45,108 nt of DNA from a virus. Within the stretch, counting starts at the first letter, position 1. Each line of letters opens with the position of its first letter. The stretch is taken from the UHGV virus genome UHGV-0324336; one strand, 5' to 3'. The notes below the pieces were generated by a model that did not search any database, was not told where the DNA came from, and was given only the letters and a program-made list of their open reading frames with translations. A program made the position numbers and the translations under genes. This document shows, piece after piece, positions 4,936-31,030 of this stretch.

Positions 4936-5011
<76 letters not shown>

Positions 5012-5013
5012 AT

Positions 5014-5090
<77 letters not shown>

Positions 5091-5091
5091 A

Positions 5092-5168
5092 CTGGACCGC
5101 CACCGGGGACTCGAACCTCGCACACTCAACTTAAAGGGTTGACGCTCTTTCCTGATGAGCTAGTGGCG
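5092..5168 (-). tRNA. tRNA-like gene with atypical anticodon loop (CCUUUAA; Lys-UUU-like but C33); possible pseudo- or non-canonical tRNA
   Basis: Manual fold: acceptor CCGCCAC/GTGGCGG, D-arm GCTC…GAGC, T-loop TTCGAGT, CCA encoded, but position 33 is C and T-stem has an A·C mismatch. Confidence 0.5.
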
Positions 5169-5169
5169 G

Positions 5170-5245
5170 CTGGTGGCCCTTGCTGGATTTGAACCAGCGA
5201 CCTGGCGATTATGAGTCGCTCGCTCTCACCACTGAGCTAAAGGGC
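5170..5245 (-). tRNA. tRNA-Ile2/Met type (anticodon CAU), ileX/ileZ-like
   Basis: Manual fold: GGCCCTTTAGCTCAGTGGTGAGAGC…CTCATAA…GGTTCAAATCC…GGGCCACCA; closely resembles recalled E. coli ileX (lysidine tRNA-Ile2). Confidence 0.75.
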
Positions 5246-5351
5246 CGGGCGCAGGATAATAACGTTACGAAATCAATGTTGCAAGCATTCAAAAATCACC
5301 CTTATCTCCTCCACCAGCGCATTCACCATGTCTATCCGAGATAAGTGGCAC

Positions 5352-5428: not shown

Positions 5429-5457
5429 AATATATGCCTTTCAATCTACTTTTGCAA
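5429..5457 (-). promoter_or_regulatory. candidate late promoter (pR'-like) with probable qut region
   Basis: Minus strand -35 TTGCAA (5452-5457), 17-nt spacer, -10 TATATT (5429-5434); immediately 3' of the Q-like gene and 5' of the terminator. Confidence 0.45.
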
Positions 5458-6130
5458 CACTTTGCTTTGAAAATGCCGCCTTTTGTTTTGAACGTGTTCT
5501 CATTACAAACAATAAAGCCTCACTATCAAGTCGGTGAAAAATGTGTTTCATTGCAACCCAGTGACGAGTAAATGTTTTGGACCAGTTTTTAGTTGTCACT
5601 CCCGCCAGTAATGCCAGCTCCTGGTATTCATAACCTTCCCCACCAAAAAGTTCTGCTTTTACTGCCTGCGCCGCCAGCCAGATTAATTTTTTCAGGCGTT
5701 CCTGCGTTTTCCCTGCAATTTTTCTGGTACCGGATTGAGTATTAAATTCATTCCACGCCCACTGTGTTATCGCGATCTGATATTCCCAACAAATAATCCC
5801 GCTGTAACACCACAACAACCAGGCTTTATGATGTTCTTCAAGAGACAGAACTGCCCGTCGCCATGATGATGTCGAAAACTCAACCTGACTTACCAGAGCA
5901 ATTGATGAGCCTTTCGCCAGTGATTGTTTTCCCGGTATCGGTGGACTATCCCGCGTTATCATTCTTCCAGTCACTTCATCGCGGTACCGGATTTTTTTAC
6001 GCCTGTAACGCCCTGTATCAAACATGGCATTCTCCTGCCAGGCTTCAAGCTGACCTTTTGTTGCCCCACTCAAATCAGCGGTAGCGATAATGAGCTGCTC
6101 ACGCACAAACTGTAAATACTGGTTATTCAT
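5441..6130 (-). CDS. putative late-gene antiterminator Q-family protein (229 aa)
   Basis: Position after rusA and before the late promoter/terminator and lysis genes; ATGA overlap with rusA; family not confirmed from sequence. Confidence 0.5.
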   Translation of the reverse strand: MNNQYLQFVREQLIIATADLSGATKGQLEAWQENAMFDTGRYRRKKIRYRDEVTGRMITRDSPPIPGKQSLAKGSSIALVSQVEFSTSSWRRAVLSLEEHHKAWLLWCYSGIICWEYQIAITQWAWNEFNTQSGTRKIAGKTQERLKKLIWLAAQAVKAELFGGEGYEYQELALLAGVTTKNWSKTFTRHWVAMKHIFHRLDSEALLFVMRTRSKQKAAFSKQSVAKVD

Positions 6131-9463: not shown

Positions 9464-10843
9464 ATGTGGAAAGATAAGTATATTTGTCATAAATGCGTGA
9501 ACGATAAATATGTCATGCAGCATATAATAAAAACCGGAAATAATGTTCGGATTTGCTCTTACTGCAAAAGGAAGCGTAAAAACATCCACCTCAAATATAT
9601 TCTCAAGATGATGAATGAGGTTTTTGAGTACTACTATGATATGTATGAGGATATCTATGATTCCGGGCGCGGTGATAGCGCGCAGGATGTCATCTGCGGA
9701 GAACTGGGCGTCGAATGGGACGTAGCTGAAGATATTTATGAATTTCTTTGTGATGAATATAATCCGCATAACGATTATGACTACATCCGGTATAATGATG
9801 GGTTTGTTTATCGGCACATAAATCACTATAGCGGAGAGCTTGCGCATACCTGGAGTAAAGCCACTGACTCCCTTATGAAAGAAACACGATATTTTAACCG
9901 TGAAGTTAATGATTTCCTGGATTCACTTTTCAGTGATATCGATAAACTAAAAAACAGAGACAGTAATTCACCGATAAAAACTCTGACTGATGAGGTTCAT
10001 CTTTTTCGTGCAAGGGTCTTTGAGGACCAAGAGGAAGTAAAGCAAGCCTTGGAGCAGCCCGAGAAAAATTTTGGACCTCCCCCATCAACTTTGGCTCGGT
10101 CGGGCCGTATGAACGCACAGGGGATTTCAGTATTTTACGGTGCAACCTCAGTGAATTTGGCAATTGCTGAAGTAAGGCCGCCCGTCGGCAGTATTGTAGT
10201 AACGGCCTGTTTTGTACCGTTACGCGAGCTAAAAGTGCTGGACATTTCTGCCCTTGACTCGATTAGTTTCGGCTCAGGTAGTAAATTTGATCCTCAGACT
10301 CGCAAAACCAGTGAGCGCGCGATTTTTTTCAGTACGCTTTCCCGTAAGTTGACGCTTCCTACTTTTGGAAAAAGGCAGGACAGTGATTACCTCATCACCC
10401 AAGTGGTTGCCGATTACCTAGGTGACCGAAATAAATTTAAGCTTGATGGTGTCAGCTTTAAATCTACCCAGGTAGATGCCAACGGTGAGGATGCTGAGAT
10501 AGGATATAATGTCGTTCTGTTTAATAAGTCTTCCGGCGTCAGGCATGCCGCAGATAAATCTCGCCGATATAATGTTGAGATGTATGAACACATCGAAGAT
10601 GACCAGTATGCTTTTGTTCCGGAAATTCAGTTAATAGTTGAGGAACAAATAAAACCGAGACATATGGGTTCATTTTCATCCTCGCATGACAAAAATGATG
10701 CACTACTGTTGAAAACCAACAGTATGACTTATCATAAAATTACTGGTGTAAAATACCAAACAAGTGAGACGGAGATTCATCAGGGAGATAGTGTTCGAAA
10801 ACAAGAGCCACCTCAGAAATTCGATGACCTGATGGACTTCTGA
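9464..10843 (+). CDS. RES-domain protein (putative NAD+-targeting effector) with N-terminal CxxC…CxxC zinc-ribbon domain
   Basis: Candidate RES triad R215 (GRMN), E236 (LAIAEV), S331 (DGVSFKS) with intervening YG; N-terminal C8-x2-C11…C31-x2-C34; AT-rich codon usage. Confidence 0.65.
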   Translation: MWKDKYICHKCVNDKYVMQHIIKTGNNVRICSYCKRKRKNIHLKYILKMMNEVFEYYYDMYEDIYDSGRGDSAQDVICGELGVEWDVAEDIYEFLCDEYNPHNDYDYIRYNDGFVYRHINHYSGELAHTWSKATDSLMKETRYFNREVNDFLDSLFSDIDKLKNRDSNSPIKTLTDEVHLFRARVFEDQEEVKQALEQPEKNFGPPPSTLARSGRMNAQGISVFYGATSVNLAIAEVRPPVGSIVVTACFVPLRELKVLDISALDSISFGSGSKFDPQTRKTSERAIFFSTLSRKLTLPTFGKRQDSDYLITQVVADYLGDRNKFKLDGVSFKSTQVDANGEDAEIGYNVVLFNKSSGVRHAADKSRRYNVEMYEHIEDDQYAFVPEIQLIVEEQIKPRHMGSFSSSHDKNDALLLKTNSMTYHKITGVKYQTSETEIHQGDSVRKQEPPQKFDDLMDF

Positions 10844-11304: not shown

Positions 11305-12228
11305 TTAGTGTAATTCCGAAAGGAGCCTAGTAACAAACTCTTTATATGTTGTAGCTTTATAATCAAGCTTACGGTTTTCCTGTCTCATCACCGCGATGAG
11401 AAGACAAGCTGTAAAACACCAGAAGGGCGATGAATCTGAAAGGTTGTACCCCCCTATCATTGTTTGAATCCTTACTGCTATAGATGGATACTCTTCACCA
11501 CCCCATTTATCGATATCTGATGTTAAAGCGTGTATAGTAAAGGCGGCAAGTGTTATCCCCATTGCTCGTTTTTGCATGACCTCTTCATAGGTATGCCCAG
11601 CTTTTTTAGCATAGACTCCGACGCCCTTAGTTATATATTCACGAGCCCAAGAGTCACAGGCTAACTCTTCTTCATCCTTCTCTTGGGGATTTTCATGTTT
11701 TTTTTCTTCGGCTCGTGCTTGAACATGTTTATACTCATGAAGTATAGAAAAAGACAATGCTAATGCTACTAGATCAAAAACAGCCTGTTCTTGAATATTA
11801 TTCAAACTATCTCGCGCATCTGTTGGAAAAGGAATATCTTGAGGCCATGTAATATCAGCCGTATTCGCAACGCTTAGCAAAGACTTTGAAATATACAAAT
11901 GCTGTTTATAATTTAGTTCAAATTGGCCACGTTCTTCATCAGATTCTAAAGCCGACTCTAACGTCACACCTAGTAAGCATGCTTTTACTAGGGCTGGAGC
12001 ATATGTCTCAATCGTAAACCATGTACTAAACCCAAATAACCAAAAGAAATCGATAGTTTTAGAGTCAAACTCGATGCGCCTACTAGTTGCATTCATTGTT
12101 GATCCTAGGGCATCCTCTGCAAGTTCGACCGTGTGTTTATAGCTCTTCCAGGTCTGACAAAGTTCATCAGCATTCTCAGGAACAGCCCCTCTTAGGAGGT
12201 TTAAAACTATAGTATCTAGTGATGGCAT
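11305..12228 (-). CDS. putative zinc metallopeptidase (HExxH), possibly Lit-like phage-exclusion protease
   Basis: Single HEYKH motif at residues 164-168 of 307 aa; size and motif position close to e14 Lit (297 aa, HExxH ~160-164, recalled); AT-rich. Confidence 0.5.
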   Translation of the reverse strand: MPSLDTIVLNLLRGAVPENADELCQTWKSYKHTVELAEDALGSTMNATSRRIEFDSKTIDFFWLFGFSTWFTIETYAPALVKACLLGVTLESALESDEERGQFELNYKQHLYISKSLLSVANTADITWPQDIPFPTDARDSLNNIQEQAVFDLVALALSFSILHEYKHVQARAEEKKHENPQEKDEEELACDSWAREYITKGVGVYAKKAGHTYEEVMQKRAMGITLAAFTIHALTSDIDKWGGEEYPSIAVRIQTMIGGYNLSDSSPFWCFTACLLIAVMRQENRKLDYKATTYKEFVTRLLSELH

Positions 12229-18262: not shown

Positions 18263-20704
18263 ATGAGCACTGATAAAGAAGAATTTGCACTATATTGCGA
18301 AGCAAAAAATGACAAAGTAAGAAAACGCCTAGGAATTAAAGGTGGTTTTTACTGGACTACAGCAAAAAAATTATCTGTTGCAATCTCCCGCTGCATTACC
18401 GCAATGGATGACAACGATTATGATGAAGACGACTTTAAAAAACCCGTCCGCGTCAATTTGCCCGTTGTTGACGACCTTCCGCCAGAAGGCGTGTTTGATA
18501 CTGAATTCTGCAACCGCTATGAAAAAGGCGGGAAAGATGGCATCACAATGACATTTATCGGCCCTTCCCCCTCTGTTCAGGACAAACCAGCCAGCACTGA
18601 CAATACCAACATCAACGGCGAAGACATGACTGAGATTGAGGAGAGCATGCTTCTGCCTGTCTCCGGTCAGGAACTGCCCATTCGTTGGCTTGCTCAACAC
18701 GGCAGCGAAAAACCAGTAACGCACGTTTCACGCGACGAACTCCAGGCATTACACATTGCACGGGCTGAAGAACTACCGGCTGTTACTGCCCTGGCTATTT
18801 CGCATAAAACCAGTCTGCTCGACTCGCTGGAGATTCGCGACCTCCACAAACTGGTTCGTGACACTGACAAAGTTTTCCCTAATCCTGGTAATTCAGACCT
18901 GGGACTAATAACTGCTTTTTTCGAAGCATACCTGGACGCTGACTACACTGATCGGGGTCTGCTGACAAAAGAGTGGATGAAAGGAAATCGTGTTTCACGC
19001 ATCACCCGCACGGCTTCCGGTGCTAATGCTGGCGGTGGGAACAAAACCGATCGCAATCCGAATTTAGTACACACCCTCGACACACTGGATGTGGAGATTG
19101 CAGCAGCCACACTTCCGATGGATTTTAATATTTATGAAATTCCGGGCAGCGTTTATCGTCGCGCAAAAGAAGTAGTCCTGAACAAAGAAAGTCCGTTCAA
19201 AGAATGGTCCGCAGCACTTCGTGCAACCCCGGGTATTCTGGACTATTCCCGCGCCGCTATTTTTGCACTTATCCGAAGCGCACACCCTGAATTTTATCAC
19301 TACCCGGGACGCCTTCAGGGGTATATCAACGCCTATTTGACGGAAACTGATCACGAGAACCCCAGCAAGGAAACTCTCACAGCTGCCCGGCATACGCCGG
19401 AAAAAGATATCCTGGAAGAAATTAACCGCGAGGTGGTTACTGAGCGTGAAACAGAAGAAGAAAAACCACAACCATCTGACGCAATGGCAGGTGAACAGGC
19501 AACAACTGAAACAATGGAACCGGATACAACTGAACATGGCCAGAACGCGCAGTCGCTGGATGCTCAGTCGCAGGTGAGTTCCGCTAACCAAGTAAAAGTC
19601 ACCGCTGACGAAGTAAACAAAATTATGCAGGCAGCCAATATCAGCCAGCCTGACGCCGATAAGTTACTTGCTGTATCGCGTGGTGAATTTGTTGAGGGGA
19701 TTAGCGACCCTAATGATCCGAAATGGGTCAAGGGGATCCAGACTCGCGATTCTGTGAACCAGAACCAGCATGAATCGGAACGGAACGACCAAAAAGCGGA
19801 ACAAAACAGCCCAAATGCGTTACAAAACGAGCCAGAAACGAAACAATCCGAACCAGTAGCGCAACAGGAACCGGAAAAAGTCTGCACCGCCTGCGGTCAG
19901 AGCGGTGGCGGCAACTGCCCTGATTGTGGCGCGGTGATGGGCGACGCAACATACCAGGAAACATTCGATGAAGAGAATCAGGTTGAAGTTCAGGAAAATG
20001 ATCCGGAGGAAATGGAAGGCGCTGAACATCCACACAAGGAGAACCCTGGCGGCAATCAGCATCACGCCAGCGATAATAAAACTGGCGAGGCGACAGATCC
20101 CTTAATTAAGGTGAATGGTCATCATAAGCTCACATCCACCAGCAGAGCGGGGATTCATCTGATGATCGACCTTGAAACCATGGGAAAAAATCCCGATGCC
20201 CCAATTATCTCAATAGGCGCAATATTTTTCGATCCACAAACCGGAGATATGGGACCGGAATTTAGCAAGACCATCGATCTGGATACTGCTGGCGGAGTCA
20301 TTGATCGTGACGTCATTAAATGGTGGCTAAAGCAATCACGTGAAGCGCAGTCTGCCATTATGACCGATGAAATCCCGTTAGATGATGCACTACTGCAATT
20401 GCGGGAATTTATCGACGAAAACTCCGGTGAATTTTTTGTTCAGGTCTGGGGTAATGGGGCCAACTTCGACAACGTGATTTTACGCCGTTCATACGAACGA
20501 CAGGGTATCCCCTGCCCGTGGCGCTACTGCAACGATCGCGATGTACGCACAATCGTTGAGCTGGGGAAAGCCATAGACTTCGATGCCAGAACTGCTATCC
20601 CATTCGAAGGTGAGCGCCATAATGCACTTGATGACGCTCGTTACCAGGCAAAATACGTTTCAGCTATCTGGCAAAAACTGATCCCGAGTCAGGCTGATTT
20701 TTAA
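18263..20704 (+). CDS. RecE/YdfE-family protein with C-terminal DEDDh 3'-5' exonuclease domain (813 aa)
   Basis: C-terminal DnaQ-like motifs: DLETMG (Exo I), NGANFD (Exo II), HNALDDARY (Exo III); acidic low-complexity middle; CTACG…CPDCG zinc-ribbon-like element. Confidence 0.65.
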   Translation: MSTDKEEFALYCEAKNDKVRKRLGIKGGFYWTTAKKLSVAISRCITAMDDNDYDEDDFKKPVRVNLPVVDDLPPEGVFDTEFCNRYEKGGKDGITMTFIGPSPSVQDKPASTDNTNINGEDMTEIEESMLLPVSGQELPIRWLAQHGSEKPVTHVSRDELQALHIARAEELPAVTALAISHKTSLLDSLEIRDLHKLVRDTDKVFPNPGNSDLGLITAFFEAYLDADYTDRGLLTKEWMKGNRVSRITRTASGANAGGGNKTDRNPNLVHTLDTLDVEIAAATLPMDFNIYEIPGSVYRRAKEVVLNKESPFKEWSAALRATPGILDYSRAAIFALIRSAHPEFYHYPGRLQGYINAYLTETDHENPSKETLTAARHTPEKDILEEINREVVTERETEEEKPQPSDAMAGEQATTETMEPDTTEHGQNAQSLDAQSQVSSANQVKVTADEVNKIMQAANISQPDADKLLAVSRGEFVEGISDPNDPKWVKGIQTRDSVNQNQHESERNDQKAEQNSPNALQNEPETKQSEPVAQQEPEKVCTACGQSGGGNCPDCGAVMGDATYQETFDEENQVEVQENDPEEMEGAEHPHKENPGGNQHHASDNKTGEATDPLIKVNGHHKLTSTSRAGIHLMIDLETMGKNPDAPIISIGAIFFDPQTGDMGPEFSKTIDLDTAGGVIDRDVIKWWLKQSREAQSAIMTDEIPLDDALLQLREFIDENSGEFFVQVWGNGANFDNVILRRSYERQGIPCPWRYCNDRDVRTIVELGKAIDFDARTAIPFEGERHNALDDARYQAKYVSAIWQKLIPSQADF

Positions 20705-21886: not shown

Positions 21887-22927
21887 TTATTTAGACGCAA
21901 GCGCCGCCTCAATTGCAGATAATCTTTGTCTTAATTCTGCGTTTTCTTCTTCCAGTGCTGTTATTCTGTCGTCTGACTCTCTGGCTACCTGAACAAGCAA
22001 GCCAGTAATACCAGAATAATCTACTGTGTAATAACGTTCACCTTCTTCACCTTCCGATCCGCTTGCACCGTCCTGATATTTCATTGCGGAACCTACAACT
22101 TCCGGGATTGCTTCCAGAGCTTCCTGTGCAATGACACCAGCATAGGGCATACCGTTTTCTTTAAGCGTGTATGTATAGCCGTTCATTTTACGGATGCGGT
22201 CGGTTGCATTATCGATCACCTGAATGTTGTCTTTCAGATCCCGGTCGGAATGCTGGTTAAATGCGGTGGCATGACATGCACCATTAACGCTTAACATATA
22301 GGTGTTATCGGTATTTTTCTGCGCATAGAACATATAAGCGCCACCATCAACACCGACTTCATAAACAACAGGACGGCTGGAGTTGCCCCACAATCGAGCA
22401 GTAACACCAGCATAAGCGGTTCCCCGTGTGTTTAATGTCATGGTTGACCCATGATTGGCATATTTGATCTGTAATGTGTCGGTGTAATCAAATTTAATAA
22501 GCGCGTTACTTCCACGCTTGCTGTATGACATAAGGCAGTTACCCATTTTGAGGTATCCGCTGTCACCGGGAAAAATCATCGTACCGCCATAAAGGTTGGT
22601 AAAGTCCCAGCAAATGTTTGTCCCGTTATCGTTCAGGTTAAGGCGCGCCATTGCGTTACCTGGACTGTCTATCCATTTTTTGAGGTATAGTTCGCAATAC
22701 GCATCCTCAACACCTGCCGTCCTGTGAGTTGAGCGGAGTTTTCTCCCAAATATAGCTCCGCTAGTTGGCAATACCTGCTGATACCATGAAGCAGACCAGT
22801 CACCAACGATTTCATCTTTGCTGTCTACATATAATTTTGTTGCGTAGCTTCCTTGATCGTTTTTTAATTTGCTAACGTCGGATTTTAGCGTTTTGATGTC
22901 ATCAGGAATTACTGTCGATGTAGCCAT
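21887..22927 (-). CDS. tail fibre/spike-like protein with C-terminal S74 intramolecular-chaperone autoprotease domain
   Basis: C-terminal S-D-R-D-L-K-D-N-I motif (Ser-Lys dyad of endosialidase-type chaperone domains), then coiled-coil tail ITALEEENAELRQRL. Confidence 0.65.
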   Translation of the reverse strand: MATSTVIPDDIKTLKSDVSKLKNDQGSYATKLYVDSKDEIVGDWSASWYQQVLPTSGAIFGRKLRSTHRTAGVEDAYCELYLKKWIDSPGNAMARLNLNDNGTNICWDFTNLYGGTMIFPGDSGYLKMGNCLMSYSKRGSNALIKFDYTDTLQIKYANHGSTMTLNTRGTAYAGVTARLWGNSSRPVVYEVGVDGGAYMFYAQKNTDNTYMLSVNGACHATAFNQHSDRDLKDNIQVIDNATDRIRKMNGYTYTLKENGMPYAGVIAQEALEAIPEVVGSAMKYQDGASGSEGEEGERYYTVDYSGITGLLVQVARESDDRITALEEENAELRQRLSAIEAALASK

Positions 22928-22936
22928 TTTTCTTCC

Positions 22937-23218
22937 TCACATCCAGCCACGAAGTTGATGCTCAACAGCAACCACGTATTCATCGAATAATGACGATATT
23001 TGCGAATCATTAATGATGCGCACGTTTACAAAATATCCGTCTTCCTTAACACATACCGGTTCGCCATCTTCAGTCAGTTCTCCGGTTTCTTTGTACACGT
23101 TACCTATCACGTCAATAAGAATATCATCCTGCATCGACTCGTCATCATAATAGCCAATACTCTCCATAAAGGCCGAAAAGTCGGCCCTGTCGGCAAATTT
23201 GAGTGTTAAATCTTTCAT
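22937..23218 (-). CDS. small acidic protein translationally coupled to stf (possible fibre assembly factor)
   Basis: 93 aa; start overlaps stf stop (TAATG); 9-nt gap to next fibre gene; not lambda Tfa. Confidence 0.45.
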   Translation of the reverse strand: MKDLTLKFADRADFSAFMESIGYYDDESMQDDILIDVIGNVYKETGELTEDGEPVCVKEDGYFVNVRIINDSQISSLFDEYVVAVEHQLRGWM

Positions 23219-25452
23219 TAGATTGACTCCCCCACCTGAGCATCAGTCAATGCCTTGTGCCATATTCTGAAATTCCTGACATGACCAAATAAATGACGTA
23301 ACCCGGCTGTAGTCTGACCTCCAATACGGATAATTGCGGTGTTCTGAATACAGGACCATGTGGTTTTTGTTTCGCTGGATATATGCCCGTTACTTACTGA
23401 GCACGTAGACTGCTCTGACTTTACACGCATCCCCATAACCATTTTTTCAAGCGATGCGTTTTCGTTTACCCGTCTGCTAGCTCCTCCAATATCGCAATAA
23501 GGAAATCCGTCGTAATCTGTTGAACGACCGAAGCCAAGAATAATAGCCGCTCCGGTTTGATGACCGCCGGTATCAAAAACACGTGGCGCTGCATTTGGCG
23601 TTTTATACCAGTTCTTATGTACCTCACAAAGAACCGTAAAAGGAAGATTATAAAGATTATTCTTAATTGGAACTGTAACTATATCGCTTGCGCGGGTCGC
23701 CGCCGTCGCTCCTGATATAATAAAAGATGATACACAAGGCCCATCTTCTACTTGTGGGGTGGCCAGATAAATATAGTCACCAGATACGGTTGCCCCGCTC
23801 TGCTTAGGAGAATACTGTATCTGAGAGCCTATTTTTAACTCCCCATCAATTGCCTGAATTGTTGCCTCTGCAAAAATCCATCCGGTAGCTTCGTCCTTTC
23901 TGACTCTCGCTGTAATCCTTGAGGCAGCACCGCCTGTCATATTAATTTCAAGCGTTTGTGTATCAATATACGCATCACCAAGAAAAGTTGTTGCGCTACC
24001 GTCATATTTATCAAACCGGATACGCAACCTTACCTGCAGTTCTGTTTTAAAACGACATGAGGTTGTCACGTGTTTATTATCGCCTGAGACATCAACTGAC
24101 TTTGTTGCAGCAATTGATGCCATATTAATGGCTGAGGTTTGCCCAATCAGAGAATCGTTGCAGACAAACTTTCCATAGGTAAAACCAAAATTATCCGTCC
24201 CTGTTTCGGGCACATCCATATTTGACGATCGCCCCCAACTGGCAGGGCTTTCCGAATTGAGCATGTAGTTTGTTCTTTGCCCCTCAATAAGCAGGCCATC
24301 ACGTTCAAATCGTGGCTCGTCAATGGCAGCCTCTGTCAGCACACCAGATTTATTAATATAGGTTGCTTTCGATGCACGTTTAAACTTAACAATCTTGTCG
24401 CCAGGCATCGTTATTTCGTCGTCACCAATAACAATCTTTTTATATGATGGCGAAAAGCCCGTAATCATATCCAGTGAATCGTTAAACGGTATCCACACAT
24501 CAGGCAGCGGCTGTAAGACATATTTATACGGATCTGCTGCCTGGCTTGCATACTCTCTGGCTGCGTCTTCACTTGCTTTTGCAGCGGTCTGGCTTGCAGC
24601 GGATGCTTTCGCCGAGTTGGCCGCCGCAGTTTCGCTGGCTTTGGCATTCGTTTCGCTGGTCTTCGCTGCCGTCTGGCTGGACTTTGCGTTAGTTTCACTC
24701 GTCTTCGCAGCTTTCTGGCTGTTAGCCGCAGCAGTTGCTGATCCAGCTGCTGAAGTCGCAGAACCGGCTGCCGCGCTCTCGCTTTGGGCTGCTGCAACCT
24801 GGCTGTTTTTTGCCGCAGTTTCACTGGCTTTGGCATTCGTTTCGCTGGTTTTCGCTGCCGTCTGGCTGGACTTTGCGTTGGTTTCGCTCGTCTTTGCGGC
24901 TGTCTCGCTATTTTTCGCGTTGGTTTCTGATTTTTTGGCTGCTGTCGCGGAGTTTTCTGATGCAGTCTGTGAGGTCGCTGCCGCCTGTGCACTATTAGCT
25001 GCATTCGTTTCTGAGGTTTTCGCCGCGTTCTTCGATGATGCCGCTGCAGTTTCGGATTTCTTTGCCGCCGCTGCGCTCTGAGAGGCGGCTTCGGCGTTGC
25101 GTGCCGCTTCTTCCACCATTTCCTCAAAACGACGCAATGCCTCCGGCATGACATCATCTTCCGTCATGGCACCGAGAAAATCATTCAGCGTACCTGGTCT
25201 GGAACCTTCATAGACGGTAATGGTTCCGGCATGTGAAGGCGGAAAACCTTCAACAAGCAGGATAACGCTGTACTGGCCATACTCAACATCCATGCTGTAA
25301 CGCCCGGCTTCATCCGGATTTTCAGAGGCCACCGTGTTCACCAGTACCGTGGTGCTGTTACGCTTTGCCTTCAGTTGAATAGTGCAGTTCTGTATTGGTT
25401 TTCCCGCACCATCTTTCAGCACACCTGAGATTTTTACTGCTGCCATATCCAC
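23218..25452 (-). CDS. stf: side tail fibre Stf (lambda-like N-terminus, non-lambda C-terminal LamG/ConA-like lectin domain)
   Basis: N-terminus MAVKISGVLKDGAGKPIQNCTIQLKA… matches lambda Stf; Ala/Ser/Thr-rich helical repeats; C-terminal …LFGHVRNFRIWHKALTDAQV typical of LamG-type domains. Confidence 0.8.
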   Translation of the reverse strand: MDMAAVKISGVLKDGAGKPIQNCTIQLKAKRNSTTVLVNTVASENPDEAGRYSMDVEYGQYSVILLVEGFPPSHAGTITVYEGSRPGTLNDFLGAMTEDDVMPEALRRFEEMVEEAARNAEAASQSAAAAKKSETAAASSKNAAKTSETNAANSAQAAATSQTASENSATAAKKSETNAKNSETAAKTSETNAKSSQTAAKTSETNAKASETAAKNSQVAAAQSESAAAGSATSAAGSATAAANSQKAAKTSETNAKSSQTAAKTSETNAKASETAAANSAKASAASQTAAKASEDAAREYASQAADPYKYVLQPLPDVWIPFNDSLDMITGFSPSYKKIVIGDDEITMPGDKIVKFKRASKATYINKSGVLTEAAIDEPRFERDGLLIEGQRTNYMLNSESPASWGRSSNMDVPETGTDNFGFTYGKFVCNDSLIGQTSAINMASIAATKSVDVSGDNKHVTTSCRFKTELQVRLRIRFDKYDGSATTFLGDAYIDTQTLEINMTGGAASRITARVRKDEATGWIFAEATIQAIDGELKIGSQIQYSPKQSGATVSGDYIYLATPQVEDGPCVSSFIISGATAATRASDIVTVPIKNNLYNLPFTVLCEVHKNWYKTPNAAPRVFDTGGHQTGAAIILGFGRSTDYDGFPYCDIGGASRRVNENASLEKMVMGMRVKSEQSTCSVSNGHISSETKTTWSCIQNTAIIRIGGQTTAGLRHLFGHVRNFRIWHKALTDAQVGESI
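24623..24900. repeat. two ~89-bp near-identical direct repeats 189 bp apart inside stf
   Basis: GCCGCAGTTTCGCTGGCTTTGGCATTCGTTTCGCTGG… at 24623-24711 and 24812-24900; encode repeated AAKTSETNAKxS units. Confidence 0.7.
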
Positions 25453-25510: not shown

Positions 25511-26110
25511 TCAGAATTTATAACCGACACCCACGATGAAACCGTCAGTGCGCCAGTCACCACTGCCGGAACCTTCATAAGCAAGGTCAATGGCCACGGA
25601 TTCGGTCGGGTTAAACTGCACGCCAGCCCCCCACGCCAGAGACGTGTTGCTGTGGCGACCGTCATCACTTCCGGTCAGCACATCGTGCGTTTTCCCCTTG
25701 TTGTCAGTTACGCGGAGATAATCCCCGGAGAAGGTCGACACACGGCTGTAAGCCATACCCGCCATCGCATAAGCACTGAACCATTCATTCACGCGTACAG
25801 ATGGCCCCGCCATCATGCTGAACCAGCGGTTACGCACGGAATCTTCATGCCAGCGGGTATCGCTGTAATGCGTTTTTTGCTCATCTTTGGCATTGGCATA
25901 ACTGAATGACGTCACCAGCCCCAGCGTGTCCGTAAATTCATAACGGTATTTCACGTTAATGCCCTTCAGGTCATCACTGCCTGGCATATCAGTATGGGTC
26001 TGAAGATACCCGGCGCTTAGTGTGGACTGATGCTCTGCTGCGCTCGCTGGCGTACCAGCGGCAACCAGCCAGACTACTGCGGACAGAATAACAGCACATA
26101 ATTTACGCAT
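25511..26110 (-). CDS. lom: Lom outer-membrane protein (Ail/PagC family)
   Basis: Signal peptide then beta-barrel OMP sequence ending …GVGYKF; position after J as in lambda. Confidence 0.85.
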   Translation of the reverse strand: MRKLCAVILSAVVWLVAAGTPASAAEHQSTLSAGYLQTHTDMPGSDDLKGINVKYRYEFTDTLGLVTSFSYANAKDEQKTHYSDTRWHEDSVRNRWFSMMAGPSVRVNEWFSAYAMAGMAYSRVSTFSGDYLRVTDNKGKTHDVLTGSDDGRHSNTSLAWGAGVQFNPTESVAIDLAYEGSGSGDWRTDGFIVGVGYKF

Positions 26111-26177
26111 AATTACCTCTCGCTTTTCTGCAATAAAAAAGGCGTCATTTCTGACGCCCGTATTGGGGTTATAAAAT

Positions 26178-29100
26178 TCAGCTGATACTGATGCCTGCGG
26201 TGGCTTTCTTCATCACCACAACCAGCAAATCGCTGATACTTGCTGTGGGATACCAGTCATTTACCAGCCATGCTGACACCGAAAACTCCAGCGTCATGTG
26301 ACCGTGACCGGCAGGCATATCAATAACGCCACTGTAAATCAGCGTATTATCCAGCGCGGTACGGTTATAAATTTCAGCACCGTTTTTCCGCACTATCAGA
26401 CGGCATGAGGAGTAAATATCAGTATGCTCTCTCTCATGTTTAGCGCCGCTGAATGCCACCGCCGGAATAACAATCTGCCGGTCAAACGGCTGATCGTCAT
26501 AAATCCTGACGGTAATGGTCCCTGATGGCCACCGTTCCGGTGCACGGGAGTCCCGGGGGAAAGCTTTGCCCACTGTTTTAACGAGATCGCCTTCAATCTG
26601 GTTCGCGGACAGTTTTCCCAGAACCCGGCAGTTCTCGTTAATCGTGACGTTGTTGAGCGTCCCGGAGTTCGCATTCACGTTACCGCTGATATCGGCATTT
26701 TTCGCCGTCAGCCGCCCGTCCGGTGTCAGGGAAAATGCCGGAGGATTACCGCCGCTGGTAATGGTGGGAGCCGTCAGATATTTCAGGAACACTTCATTCA
26801 TAAATATCTGATCGCCCTGACCAACAAACATCGGCTTTGTGTTGCCATTCGCAGGATTAACCATCGCAATCCTGTCCGCCGCCAGCAGCACCTGACTCTG
26901 CATGCCGTCAGGGGTGTTCTCAATACCGGCACCAATACCCGCGATATAAAGGCGTCCGTCCTGCATCTGCTGCAGCTTCACAGCCCACATGCTGTTCAGG
27001 TTATTATTTGTATCAACCTGAACCTTCTGTATCTGCTGAATTGCCGCACTCTGGTCTTCCAGTTTCTTATTGACGGTCTGCGTGATTTCATTGCTGACAT
27101 CCGTAATGGACGTCCTGATTTCAGCCAGGTCAGGCGCAAGCTGACCGTTATCAATCTGCGTCCACAGCTCCTGAGCCAGATGGCTTTTCCCTATCTCGCC
27201 TTTGAAAAAATCCAGATAGCCGGATGCATCATCACTCGGCTGGCCAACAGCCTCCACAAATGCCGATTTGCCAACGGTGTTCACACTGCGGATGTAAAAA
27301 TAATAATCATGGCCCGGTTTGATATTGATACTGGCAGCTATCCAGTACAGCGCCGTGCCAAGATAGCGGGCTGTGGTTTCAACCTGCCTGATATCCGCAA
27401 TCCGCTTTTCCGAGAACCAGAACTCAAACTGTACCGTCGGATCATAAACGGCAAGATGCGGCGTGGCGGTTATCTGAAAATAGCCCGGCGTCAGCTCAAT
27501 CCGCGACGGCGCTGCCGGTGCGGCAATACGGAACGATACCGATGCCGGATCGCCCTGCTGCCCCCAGGCATTTGCCGCCCGGACTGTCAGCCTGTAGTTT
27601 CCCAGCGCCAGTTGCGTGAAGCGGTATGTGGTTTCCGTCGTCCGGGCCGTGCTGACCAGCCGCTCACTGCCGTCATCCGCTGCCACGGTCAGGCGAAGCA
27701 GGAAGCTCACGCCCTTCACCACCTTCGGTGTGTCCCATCGCGCCAGCACCTGATATTCCCCGCTGTCTGCAGTGACTTCTGCGGTCAGGTGCTGCACCGC
27801 TGGCGGCGTGACACCATTCACCGTGCCACTCTGTTCGCCGTCAAAGTGCGCCCCGTTATCCACGATGGCCTCTTTTTCCGGCACATGCTGCACGGCGGTG
27901 ATGGCATACGTGCCGTCGTCGTTCTCACGGATACTCACGCAGCGGAACAGTCGCTGGCGCAGCGTCGGCAGCTTCAGCCCCCATACGCTGTATTCAGCAA
28001 CACCGTCAGGAACACGGCTCACTTTTACCTTCACGCCGTCGGTGACGGACTGAACCTCCACGCTGACCGGATTGCCACTTCCGTCAACCAGGCTTATCAG
28101 CGTGGTACCGGAGGATGGCAGCGTGATTTCACGGTCGAGCGTCAGCGTCCGGGTCTGGCTGTTCACCGCCAGCACGCGACCACCGGTGCTGATACCGGCA
28201 TAGTCATCATCGCAGATTTCAATAACATCGCCCGGCACATGGCGAAGCCCTTCTGCGCCCACGCTGAAATCCACGGTCTGCGTTTCCAGCAGTTCCGTTT
28301 TAATCAGCCACAGCCCGGCGCGGTGTGCCTGCCCCCGGCTGGTACAGCCAAAGGCATCCATCTTCGTGACATTACGACCGTAACGGGCAATGGCCTGCGT
28401 ATCTTCAACAAGCTCTGTCGCCGTCTCCCAGCCGTTGTTCGGGTCAATCCAGTTCACCTCAACGGCATTATGGCGGTCCTTCAGGGCGCTGAAGCTGTAG
28501 CGGAACGGCGCGCCATCATCCGGCATCACCACATTACTGCGGTTATAGGTCCACACCTTATCCGACTGTCGGTCCTGCACGAACGTCAGCGTCTGCCCGT
28601 TCCATACCGGCATACAGCGCATCGCCGAGCAGAAATCACTGAGCACATCCCACGCCTTGCGCTGTGTGGTCAGGTACGCATTACAGGTGATGCGCGGCTC
28701 CGTGCCGCCAAAGCCGTCCGGCACTGACTGGTCGCAGTACTGGCCGATGACATACAGCGCCCATTTGTCCACATCCGCCGCACCAAGACGTTTCCCCATG
28801 CCGTAGCGCGGGTGGGTCAGCATATCCCACAGACACCAGGCCATGTTGTTGCTGTATGCTGGTTTTAACGTTCCGTCCCAGATACCGCTGTATTGTCGCG
28901 TCTGTGGGTTATAGTTCGACGGCACCTGCAGAATGCGCCCGCGAAGATGATAATTACGGCTCACCTGCTGGCTGCCGAACTGCTCCGAGTCCACCTGTAC
29001 GCCGACCAGTGCCGTGTTCGGGTAGCACTGTTTCACATCGATGATCTCGGTGTATGACGACCAGAGCGTTTTGTTCTGCAGCTGGTCTGTGGTGCTGTCC

Positions 29101-29657
29101 GGCGTCATCCTGCGCATCCGGATATTGAACGGGCGCGGCGGCAGGTTATCCACCACCACCGAGGCCAGATACTGCGAGGTGGTTTTGCCCTTAATGGTGA
29201 TGTCTTTTTCCGTCACCCAGCCACCGTTACGCTGTATCTGAACCAGCAGGCGGACTTCCGACGGATTCCTGTCTCCCTTTGAGGTGGTTTCCACCAGTGC
29301 CTGTACACCGAAGGTAAAGCGCAGACGGTCGATGTTTGCCGACGTGATGGTCCGGGTGATCGGCGTTTCATATTTCACTTCCGTACCGAGCACCGTCTCG
29401 GAACCGGAGGATTCAAATCCCTCCGGCGGTGACTGCTCCTGCTCACCTGCCCGGAACACCACCGTGACGCCGGAGATATTGGTATTCCCCTCACTGTCCA
29501 GCACCGGCGTACTGTTCAGCAGCACGCTTTTTAATCCATCCACCGGACCTTCAATCGGCCCTTCGCTGATGGCATCAATCGCACTCAACAGCTGCGTGGA
29601 TTTCAGGTTATCTTTCGCTTCGCGCGGGGTATGCCCCTTACTGCTGCCTTTACCCAT
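26178..29657 (-). CDS. J: tail tip/central fibre protein J (lambda-like N-terminal ~1000 aa, divergent C-terminal receptor-binding region)
   Basis: Starts [24 protein letters not shown]… as lambda J; 1159 aa vs 1132 in lambda; C-terminal ~150 aa differ from recalled lambda J. Confidence 0.9.
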
Positions 29658-29717: not shown

Positions 29718-30389
29718 TCAGCGACCAATCACCACAACCTGACCACCGTCCCCTTCGTCTGCCGTGCTGATCTCCTGAGAAACCACCCGCGACCCCACAC
29801 GCATTTCACCGTACAGAACAGGCAGAACATTGCCCTGAGCAACCATGTTATCCAGTGAGGAAAAATAGGTGTTCTGTTTGCCGTTATCCGTTGTCTGTGT
29901 ACGGGGAGTTCTGGCTTTCGGTGCCAGCATCTGCGCCACACCACCGAGCACCATACTGGCACCGAGAGAAAACAGGATGCCGGTCATACCACCGGCCCCA
30001 ATGGCTGCCCCCCATGCTGCAAGGGTGGCTCCGGCAGTAAAGAATGATCCGGCAATGGCGGCAGCTCCCAGGACAATCTGGAATACACCACCTGACTTGG
30101 CCCCGGCGACTCTGGGAACAATATGAATCACAGCGCCATCAGGCAGAGTCTCATGTAACTGAGCCGTTAATCCGGACGTGCTGACATCCCGCCCGGCAAT
30201 CCGTACCTGATACCAGCCGTCGCTCAGTTTCTGACGAAACGCCGGGAGCTGTGTGGCCAGCGCCCGGATAGCTTCAGCCCCCGTTTTCACACGAAGATCG
30301 ATGCGGCGGCCAAATCGTTGCAAATCCCCGTAAAGGCAGATGCGTGCCATGCCCGGTGACGCCAGAGGGAGTGTGTGCGTCGCTGCCAT
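29718..30389 (-). CDS. I: tail assembly protein I
   Basis: 223 aa; coordinates fit lambda map; ubiquitin-like N-terminus and Gly/Ala-rich C-terminus. Confidence 0.9.
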   Translation of the reverse strand: MAATHTLPLASPGMARICLYGDLQRFGRRIDLRVKTGAEAIRALATQLPAFRQKLSDGWYQVRIAGRDVSTSGLTAQLHETLPDGAVIHIVPRVAGAKSGGVFQIVLGAAAIAGSFFTAGATLAAWGAAIGAGGMTGILFSLGASMVLGGVAQMLAPKARTPRTQTTDNGKQNTYFSSLDNMVAQGNVLPVLYGEMRVGSRVVSQEISTADEGDGGQVVVIGR

Positions 30390-31030
30390 TTGTCGGTATA
30401 CCTCTCTCGTTTGCTCAGTTGTTCAGGAATATGGTGCAGCAGCTCGCCATCACCACAGTAAATGGCGGCATGATTCGGCACCGATGAACCAAAACAGCAC
30501 AGCAGCACATCGCCCGGTTGTGCTGATGACAACGGCACCTGATACAGCCCTGTGGCCTCCAGATTATCCAGATAGAGATTCTGACCGTGACGCCACCAGT
30601 CATCCTCGCGATGAAAATCCGGCATCTCAATCCCCGCCAGATGATAAGCATCCCGGAACAGCGTGTAACAGTCCGTCACCCCGTGCTCAAAGCGCCGCCC
30701 GGTGAGATGCGGCACACAGAGGAACTTATGAATCGTCCCCCGGCAGACCAGCCACCACGGCAAATCACTCTGCACCTGCAGCCGCCGGTCGGCTTCACTC
30801 AGCCAGGGCAGACCACCGGGATGGCTGTGGACCAGCGCGACAATCTCACCCTGCATCTCTGCCTGCAGCCAGTCCTCCGGCGACATACGGAAATACGCCT
30901 CCGGCTCACCGGAGATATTCACGCAGGGAAAATATCTTTCCCCCTCCGGCGTTCTCACCACGAAGCCGCACGACTCCGCTGGCGCACATCGCCGGGCGTG
31001 CGCCAGAATCGCTGATTCTGTCTCTGTCAT
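30287..31030 (-). CDS. K: tail assembly protein K (MPN/JAMM + NlpC/P60-like); annotated lambda start would be 30886
   Basis: Extended ORF includes JAMM-type HSHPGG motif; lambda K usually annotated as 199 aa from the internal ATG. Confidence 0.85.
   Translation of the reverse strand: MTETESAILAHARRCAPAESCGFVVRTPEGERYFPCVNISGEPEAYFRMSPEDWLQAEMQGEIVALVHSHPGGLPWLSEADRRLQVQSDLPWWLVCRGTIHKFLCVPHLTGRRFEHGVTDCYTLFRDAYHLAGIEMPDFHREDDWWRHGQNLYLDNLEATGLYQVPLSSAQPGDVLLCCFGSSVPNHAAIYCGDGELLHHIPEQLSKRERYTDKWQRRTHSLWRHRAWHASAFTGICNDLAAASIFV

Follow-up and report, generated by a model that had tools for sequence, protein, structure and literature searches.

A mosaic tail-tip protein J in a lambdoid phage genome, with a receptor-binding domain of the 1A2 class that most likely docks on OmpC

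Introduction

Which outer-membrane protein does a lambda-like phage recognize when the end of its tail-tip protein J departs from that of lambda? The question is raised by the J gene of UHGV virus genome UHGV-0324336, a stretch of 45,108 nucleotides (the window throughout this text) that appears to be a complete lambdoid phage genome lying in reverse orientation, with terminase at its right end and the lysis genes at its left end. The initial annotation of this DNA had singled out positions 26178-26700, which correspond to the 3' end of the minus-strand J open reading frame (26178-29657), and had proposed that a recombination breakpoint at this end of the gene gave the phage a receptor other than LamB. 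The analysis described here leads us to view J as a mosaic tail-tip protein with a receptor-binding domain (RBD) of the 1A2 class that most likely docks on OmpC rather than LamB, a reading drawn from homology to experimentally tested proteins and given a probability of roughly 0.85.

The J gene and its setting in the tail module

The J gene is surrounded by the following features:

26178-29657, minus strand: gene J, tail tip / central fibre protein, a single intact open reading frame of 1159 amino acids plus stop
29718-30389, upstream of J: Lambda_tail_I homologue (Pfam)
30287-31030, upstream of J: K-like JAB/NlpC-P60 protein (Pfam)
26140-26159, minus strand: terminator-like hairpin just downstream of J (pattern scan)
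25511-26110, minus strand: lom, Ail/Lom outer-membrane protein (Pfam Ail_Lom, E = 1.5e-127)
23218-25452, minus strand: stf, side tail fibre protein of 744 amino acids (Pfam phage_tail_N at residues 5-134, E = 5e-67)

The protein starts like lambda J and is 83% identical to it in an end-to-end alignment. Its Pfam domains, all far above their cut-offs, follow the order FNIII-A_GpJ, Phage-tail_3, Ig_J, Ig_J_second, Phage_Tail_Tip (residues 872-1000) and Ig_GpJ_C. The hub domains, the two FNIII/Ig domains, the fibre and the C-terminal RBD are therefore present in the order that defines a lambda-like tip attachment protein, and the gene lies in the corresponding place in the tail module, with K and I upstream and lom and stf downstream. 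As in lambda, lom is the next gene after J, and in phage 21 a terminator is annotated at the equivalent relative place downstream of J. Three open reading frames that overlap J (26515-26811 and 27180-28727 on the plus strand, 26396-26674 on the minus strand) were set aside as by-products of a long GC-rich gene, J being conserved end to end in its own frame.

Side fibres also bear on host range: stf works jointly with J as a second determinant of it, and more fibre genes are found on the downstream side of J. Positions 24500-25000, inside stf (23218-25452, minus strand), show a strong AT-skew anomaly (−0.57, plus strand) and raised GC, which suggests that this segment is compositionally odd or repetitive. 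A 93-codon open reading frame (22937-23218) precedes a gene for a 346-residue tail-fibre-like protein with a Peptidase_S74 intramolecular chaperone domain (21887-22927, minus strand), an arrangement of the fibre tip that differs from the stf/tfa pair of lambda.

Many E. coli prophages that carry J-like genes are cryptic, and the E. coli genomes hold several J-like genes each (median, three places), so that J might be a relic in a defective prophage, without current function. This is very improbable given a full-length reading frame in which every domain scores well above its Pfam cut-off, a window whose lambdoid genes, terminase through lysis, look like a complete set, and the occurrence of a J gene 98.9% identical at the DNA level in PhiR55_1, an isolated, plaque-forming phage.

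Mosaic structure of J

Lambda J was taken from NC_001416 (P03749) and aligned globally with the window J, identity being scored in 30-residue windows; segments were then compared among lambda, phage 21, phage 434, PhiR55_1 and the prophage Stx2a_1447. In the structure of the lambda tail (PMC11101478), the FNIII domains give way to a shaft of alpha-helices, then to a prism of beta-sheets and then to an Ig-like RBD that has four loops at its bottom, and the names of the shaft and prism segments below are carried over from that structure:

27228-29657, minus strand: residues 1-810, hub domains and two FNIII/Ig domains, lambda-type (identity to lambda 98%, phage 21 97%, phage 434 98%, Stx2a_1447 73%)
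26778-27227, minus strand: residues 811-960, alpha-helical shaft and upper beta-prism of the central fibre, phage-21-type (lambda 44%, phage 21 97%, phage 434 45%, Stx2a_1447 60%)
27060-27152, minus strand: residues 836-866, holding 28 residues absent from lambda J, with the same insertion in phage 21, PhiR55_1 and Stx2a_1447
26643-26777, minus strand: residues 961-1005, conserved junction and module boundary (lambda 93%, phage 21 96%, phage 434 89%, Stx2a_1447 84%)
26178-26642, minus strand: residues 1006-1159 plus stop, RBD of the "1A2 / Stx2a-prophage" class, predicted OmpC binder (tblastn, Pfam and the 1A2 match)

The last of these segments can be divided further. Residues 1006-1032 are 48% identical to lambda, 89% to phage 21, 56% to phage 434 and 100% to Stx2a_1447, and residues 1033-1159 are 42%, 61%, 41% and 98% identical to the same four proteins.

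The 30-residue profile against lambda runs at 90-100% over residues 1-810, drops to 33-70% over residues 811-960, recovers to 97% over residues 961-990 and falls again to 34-53% from about residue 1006. The protein had been described as lambda-like over about its first 1000 residues, which overstates the similarity, as identity collapses at about residues 806-811 (window position ~27230). The DNA pattern mirrors the protein mosaic, with identity to lambda down to 10-47% at window positions 27200-27021. The pairwise alignment bears out two further statements of the initial annotation: the C-terminus is not lambda-identical, its last ~150 residues standing at the 42-48% given above against 98% over residues 1-810, and J is 27 residues longer than lambda J (1159 versus 1132). 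The extra length does not come from the receptor-binding end. The alignment gap list places 28 extra residues in the shaft region (836-856 and 860-866), and the only other gap is a one-residue deletion in the window J opposite lambda residue 1106, which together account for the net gain of 27. The insertion probably lengthens the shaft.

The island of 93-97% identity at residues 961-1005 separates two lambda-divergent blocks, and J must therefore have at least two breakpoints relative to lambda. A breakpoint inside J had been placed in the 3' part of the gene; a boundary that delimits the RBD does lie at about residue 969, essentially in the interval that had been flagged, although it is not the single one envisaged. 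This boundary was located by a parental-switch test in which phage 21 and Stx2a_1447 served as alternative parents over the last 1.3 kb, with 418 informative sites. The best split fell between 26752 and 26751: phage 21 is matched at 230 of the 239 sites upstream of this point and Stx2a_1447 at 172 of the 179 sites downstream of it (Fisher p = 1e-95). The switch lies within the conserved junction, which behaves as a recombination linker because it stays similar between J genes whose flanking parts are only 60-70% identical.

We propose that the mosaic arose by homologous recombination at conserved linkers, which would have joined three parts: a lambda-type hub/FNIII body (1-810), a longer shaft of phage-21 type (811-960) and, beyond the junction (961-1005), an RBD (1006-1159) of the class found in Stx2a and other E. 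coli prophages.

Class of the receptor-binding domain

The Pfam family Ig_GpJ_C (PF12421) matches residues 1029-1159 with 128.1 bits against a cut-off of 26.2 and covers profile positions 1-135 of 135. In tblastn searches the RBD was 100% identical to that of PhiR55_1, 98% to those of Stx2a phages, ~63% to the phage-21 type, 43% to lambda and 41% to phage 434; counted from the motif GTLNNVTI to the end of the protein, identity was 66% to A8, 69% to phage 21, 45% to lambda and 47% to phage 434. The domain falls outside the lambda LamB-binding class (lambda J residues ~985-1132), from which it is set apart by its low identity over residues 1033-1159 and by the indel opposite lambda 1106, and outside the phage-21/A8 class, to which it is 61-69% identical and whose 'HENFNSNNQQSYWYS' insertion it lacks. 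Among structures in the PDB, the best sequence match of the last 360 residues is "A8 gpJ 713" (9wca/9wcb, E = 1.9e-127), ahead of lambda J (8xcj, 8iyk), and entry 9wcb also holds three OmpC chains.

The class to which the RBD does belong was recognized from 1A2, the natural C-terminus of an E. coli prophage J; Brödel et al. (Nature 2024; PMC11338833) fused this tip, and likewise the A8 tip, to lambda J at residue 964. Owing to codon recoding of the published 1A2 tip, no exact DNA word of the window occurs in the supplement of that paper, and the tip was found instead through its lambda-derived junction. The supplement is machine-read text with dropped and added bases, which broke the tblastn match to the tip into pieces lying in three frames. 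Identity was counted on the in-frame pieces, which cover nearly all of residues 982-1159, and in this noisy copy the 1A2 tip is ~97% identical to the window RBD. The four or five differences from the window to 1A2 are I1053V, R1076K, D1134N, S1157T and a doubtful F1069L, a few residue calls being uncertain in so noisy a text. Such near-identity, as read from that copy, assigns the RBD to the OmpC-dependent 1A2 class.

The motifs FDRQI, NG, DMPxGxG and KKxxxGIS are common to all RBD classes and look like the core of the fold. Differences and indels concentrate around residues 1035-1045, 1066-1085, 1098-1110 and 1126-1140. Family and fold are settled by the matches to Pfam and to solved structures: the domain keeps the Ig-like fold of the lambda RBD with different surface segments. 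The four variable stretches may correspond to the four receptor-contact loops.

OmpC as the probable receptor

The 1A2 and A8 chimeras deliver DNA into lamB/ompC double-deletion cells only when OmpC is supplied from a plasmid (PMC11338833). The two tips differ in the alleles they accept: A8 uses OmpC of both K-12 (MG1655) and EDL933, while 1A2 uses EDL933 OmpC and not that of K-12 (MG1655) (PMC11338833). Delivery by 1A2 at the top dose reached at least 76% for 20 of 23 OmpC alleles and failed on G1, G2 and G40 (PMC11338833 source data). The 1A2 tip has since been used against O157 strains.

These results bear directly on whether the divergent RBD could be a drifted LamB binder that has undergone no receptor switch. 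Its Pfam family and fold class are those of the lambda RBD, and LamB, OmpC and OmpF are all trimeric porins (PMC11101478), points in favour of such drift. Against this stand a tip ~97% identical that works in lamB-deleted cells and needs OmpC (PMC11338833), the 42% identity to lambda over residues 1033-1159, the one-residue indel opposite lambda 1106, and divergence that lies mostly between the core motifs; continued binding to LamB is accordingly hardly credible. The suggestion of the initial annotation that the receptor is other than LamB, in which no receptor was named, thus gains support from homology to tested proteins, and OmpC is the candidate to which they point.

By sequence homology the phage would use OmpC, and the alleles it accepts and the steps that trigger DNA release are likewise predictions. 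The trimeric RBD at the fibre tip would dock onto the trimeric porin OmpC, not LamB, with a preference among OmpC alleles that probably leaves out the K-12 allele. If lambda and LamB are a guide, the three RBDs would splay at their bases on binding OmpC and the beta-prism would twist; the helical shaft would flip and the tail tip open for exit of the DNA (PMC11101478).

PhiR55_1, whose RBD protein is identical to that of the window, has E. coli C as its recorded host. The OmpC of E. coli C (ompC at L009:12126-13256, compared with K-12 ompC from L006) has 376 residues against 367 in K-12 and is 91% identical to it, with insertions of 8 and 4 residues, and the substitutions and indels cluster mostly between conserved stretches. 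This host record fits a tip that rejects K-12 OmpC, as circumstantial and weak evidence since E. coli C is also restriction-deficient. The OmpC difference between the two strains bears on which lambdoid phages propagate on each. A search of the literature for receptors of the ECOR-derived PhiR phages returned only their use in a study of defence systems and no outer-membrane receptor assignment.

Aspartate 1134 and a possible shift in specificity

One difference between the window RBD and its closest relatives falls at a position of known consequence. In the alignment D1134 stands opposite lambda D1107, a position occupied by Asn in 1A2 and Stx2a_1447, and in lambda the change of D1107 to lysine is one of two universally required for OmpF use (PMC6646904). 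D1134 could shift the range of OmpC alleles, or even the choice of receptor, although a change of receptor through this residue is unlikely. The window variant as a whole (D1134, R1076, I1053, S1157) might accept another range of OmpC alleles or exploit a further porin, which we regard as improbable without being far-fetched; if true, natural polymorphisms of this kind would offer a small-step route to host-range shift within one RBD class.

A stronger form of the argument would give the RBD an outer-membrane receptor other than OmpC (such as OmpF, FhuA or BtuB), or an OmpC range markedly different from that of 1A2, by virtue of a few substitutions that include D1134. The residue aligned with D1134 is critical for the OmpF switch of lambda and is a hotspot of indels and variation in natural J proteins (PMC6646904), and the window departs there from both 1A2 and Stx2a_1447. 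The identity to an OmpC-dependent tip nevertheless remains ~97% (from the noisy 1A2 text), the D-form allele is itself widespread, with 447 E. coli records matching the window J 3' end at 99% or more, and even the A8 class, at 66% identity, binds OmpC. A departure of this size is decidedly unlikely, and docking on OmpC in the manner of 1A2 is the reading that we carry forward.

Prevalence of J tips among E. coli genomes and phages

RBD alleles were counted by megablast in 5426 complete E. coli genomes, a match being counted when it spanned 80% or more of the 523-nt 3' end of the gene in question. The window (1A2) type was found in 3365 of these genomes, the phage 21 type in 2417 and the lambda LamB type in 96, counts that are approximate since one class may cross-match another. 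Of the records shown for the lambda-type allele, the three with the highest scores are laboratory or expression strains. For the J gene as a whole, 3816 genomes had a match spanning 80% or more of its length, and 3323 records lay at 95-99% identity; in the phage collection ~52 records carry the window RBD at 95% or more, many of them Stx2a-converting phages. Two OmpC-associated classes (1A2 and phage 21) are thus each present in thousands of genomes. The window tip is the commonest J tip among E. coli prophages and the LamB-binding tip of lambda is rare, which corrects the expectation that lambda might set.

Other genes in the window

Four clustered tRNA genes (Gly-tcc, Thr-tgt, Lys-ttt and Met-cat; 4937-5246, minus strand) lie just downstream of the Q antiterminator gene (5441-6130). 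The 459-residue product of 9464-10843, a gene on the plus strand and so opposite to its neighbours, has a RES domain and, at its N-terminus, a weak HEPN/RES domain; the gene is possibly a cargo gene for a toxin or anti-phage defence. Near the immunity region, 11305-12228 (minus strand) encodes a 307-residue protein with a weak match (E = 3.7e-07) to Peptidase_U49, which we take to be the Lit protease family; this is another possible defence gene. In the 813-residue product of 18263-20704 (plus strand), a RecE-like exonuclease VIII region is joined to a Rv2179c-like 3'-5' exoribonuclease domain at the C-terminus; related phages carry similar genes under the annotation exodeoxyribonuclease VIII.

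Comparison with known J proteins

Lambda J (P03749) shares with the window protein its domain order, the Pfam family of its RBD and 98% of residues 1-810; it differs in a shaft that is 44% identical and 28 residues shorter, an RBD that is 42% identical and LamB as its receptor. Phage 434 J also has a lambda-type body and is reported to use OmpC (PMC11101478), and replacement of lambda J by the phage 434 gene gives OmpC use (older work as cited in PMC11101478). Its RBD, 41-47% identical to that of the window and with insertions of its own, forms a separate class, and OmpC use therefore occurs in more than one RBD class.

Phage 21 J is 96-97% identical to the window J over residues 1-1005, the longer shaft included, while its RBD is only 61-69% identical. 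The converse holds for J of Stx2a-converting and other O157 prophages (e.g., Stx2a_1447, AP012536), which is 98-100% identical over residues 1006-1159 and only 60-84% identical in the rest of the protein, from which it follows that the RBD moves as an independent module. In an earlier analysis of 1207 natural J homologues the specificity region, defined as residues 960-1132, had a phylogeny different from that of full-length J, with indel hotspots at 1012, 1048-1049, 1077-1078 and 1107 (Maddamsetti et al., 2018; PMC6646904). The one-residue indel of the window J, next to lambda 1107, fits this picture.

The A8 tip (PDB 9wca, 9wcb) is an OmpC binder of the same fold whose RBD is 66% identical to that of the window; it accepts K-12 OmpC, which the 1A2 class does not. 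The closest tested relative is the 1A2 tip itself, ~97% identical (noisy text) over the grafted part, window residues ~992-1159. The window J tip is, in short, an already characterised, very common and ordinary allele. J proteins with such a C-terminus can be annotated as probable 1A2-class OmpC binders, and their host range would then be expected to track OmpC alleles together with the side tail fibres. The 1A2 chimera keeps the shaft of lambda, whereas the window J has a phage-21-type shaft upstream of the same kind of tip; the engineered fusion nonetheless lies in the same conserved junction as the natural module boundary of the window. That nature and design meet at one fusion point adds no new biology, but it backs the engineering choice made for retargeting lambda particles.
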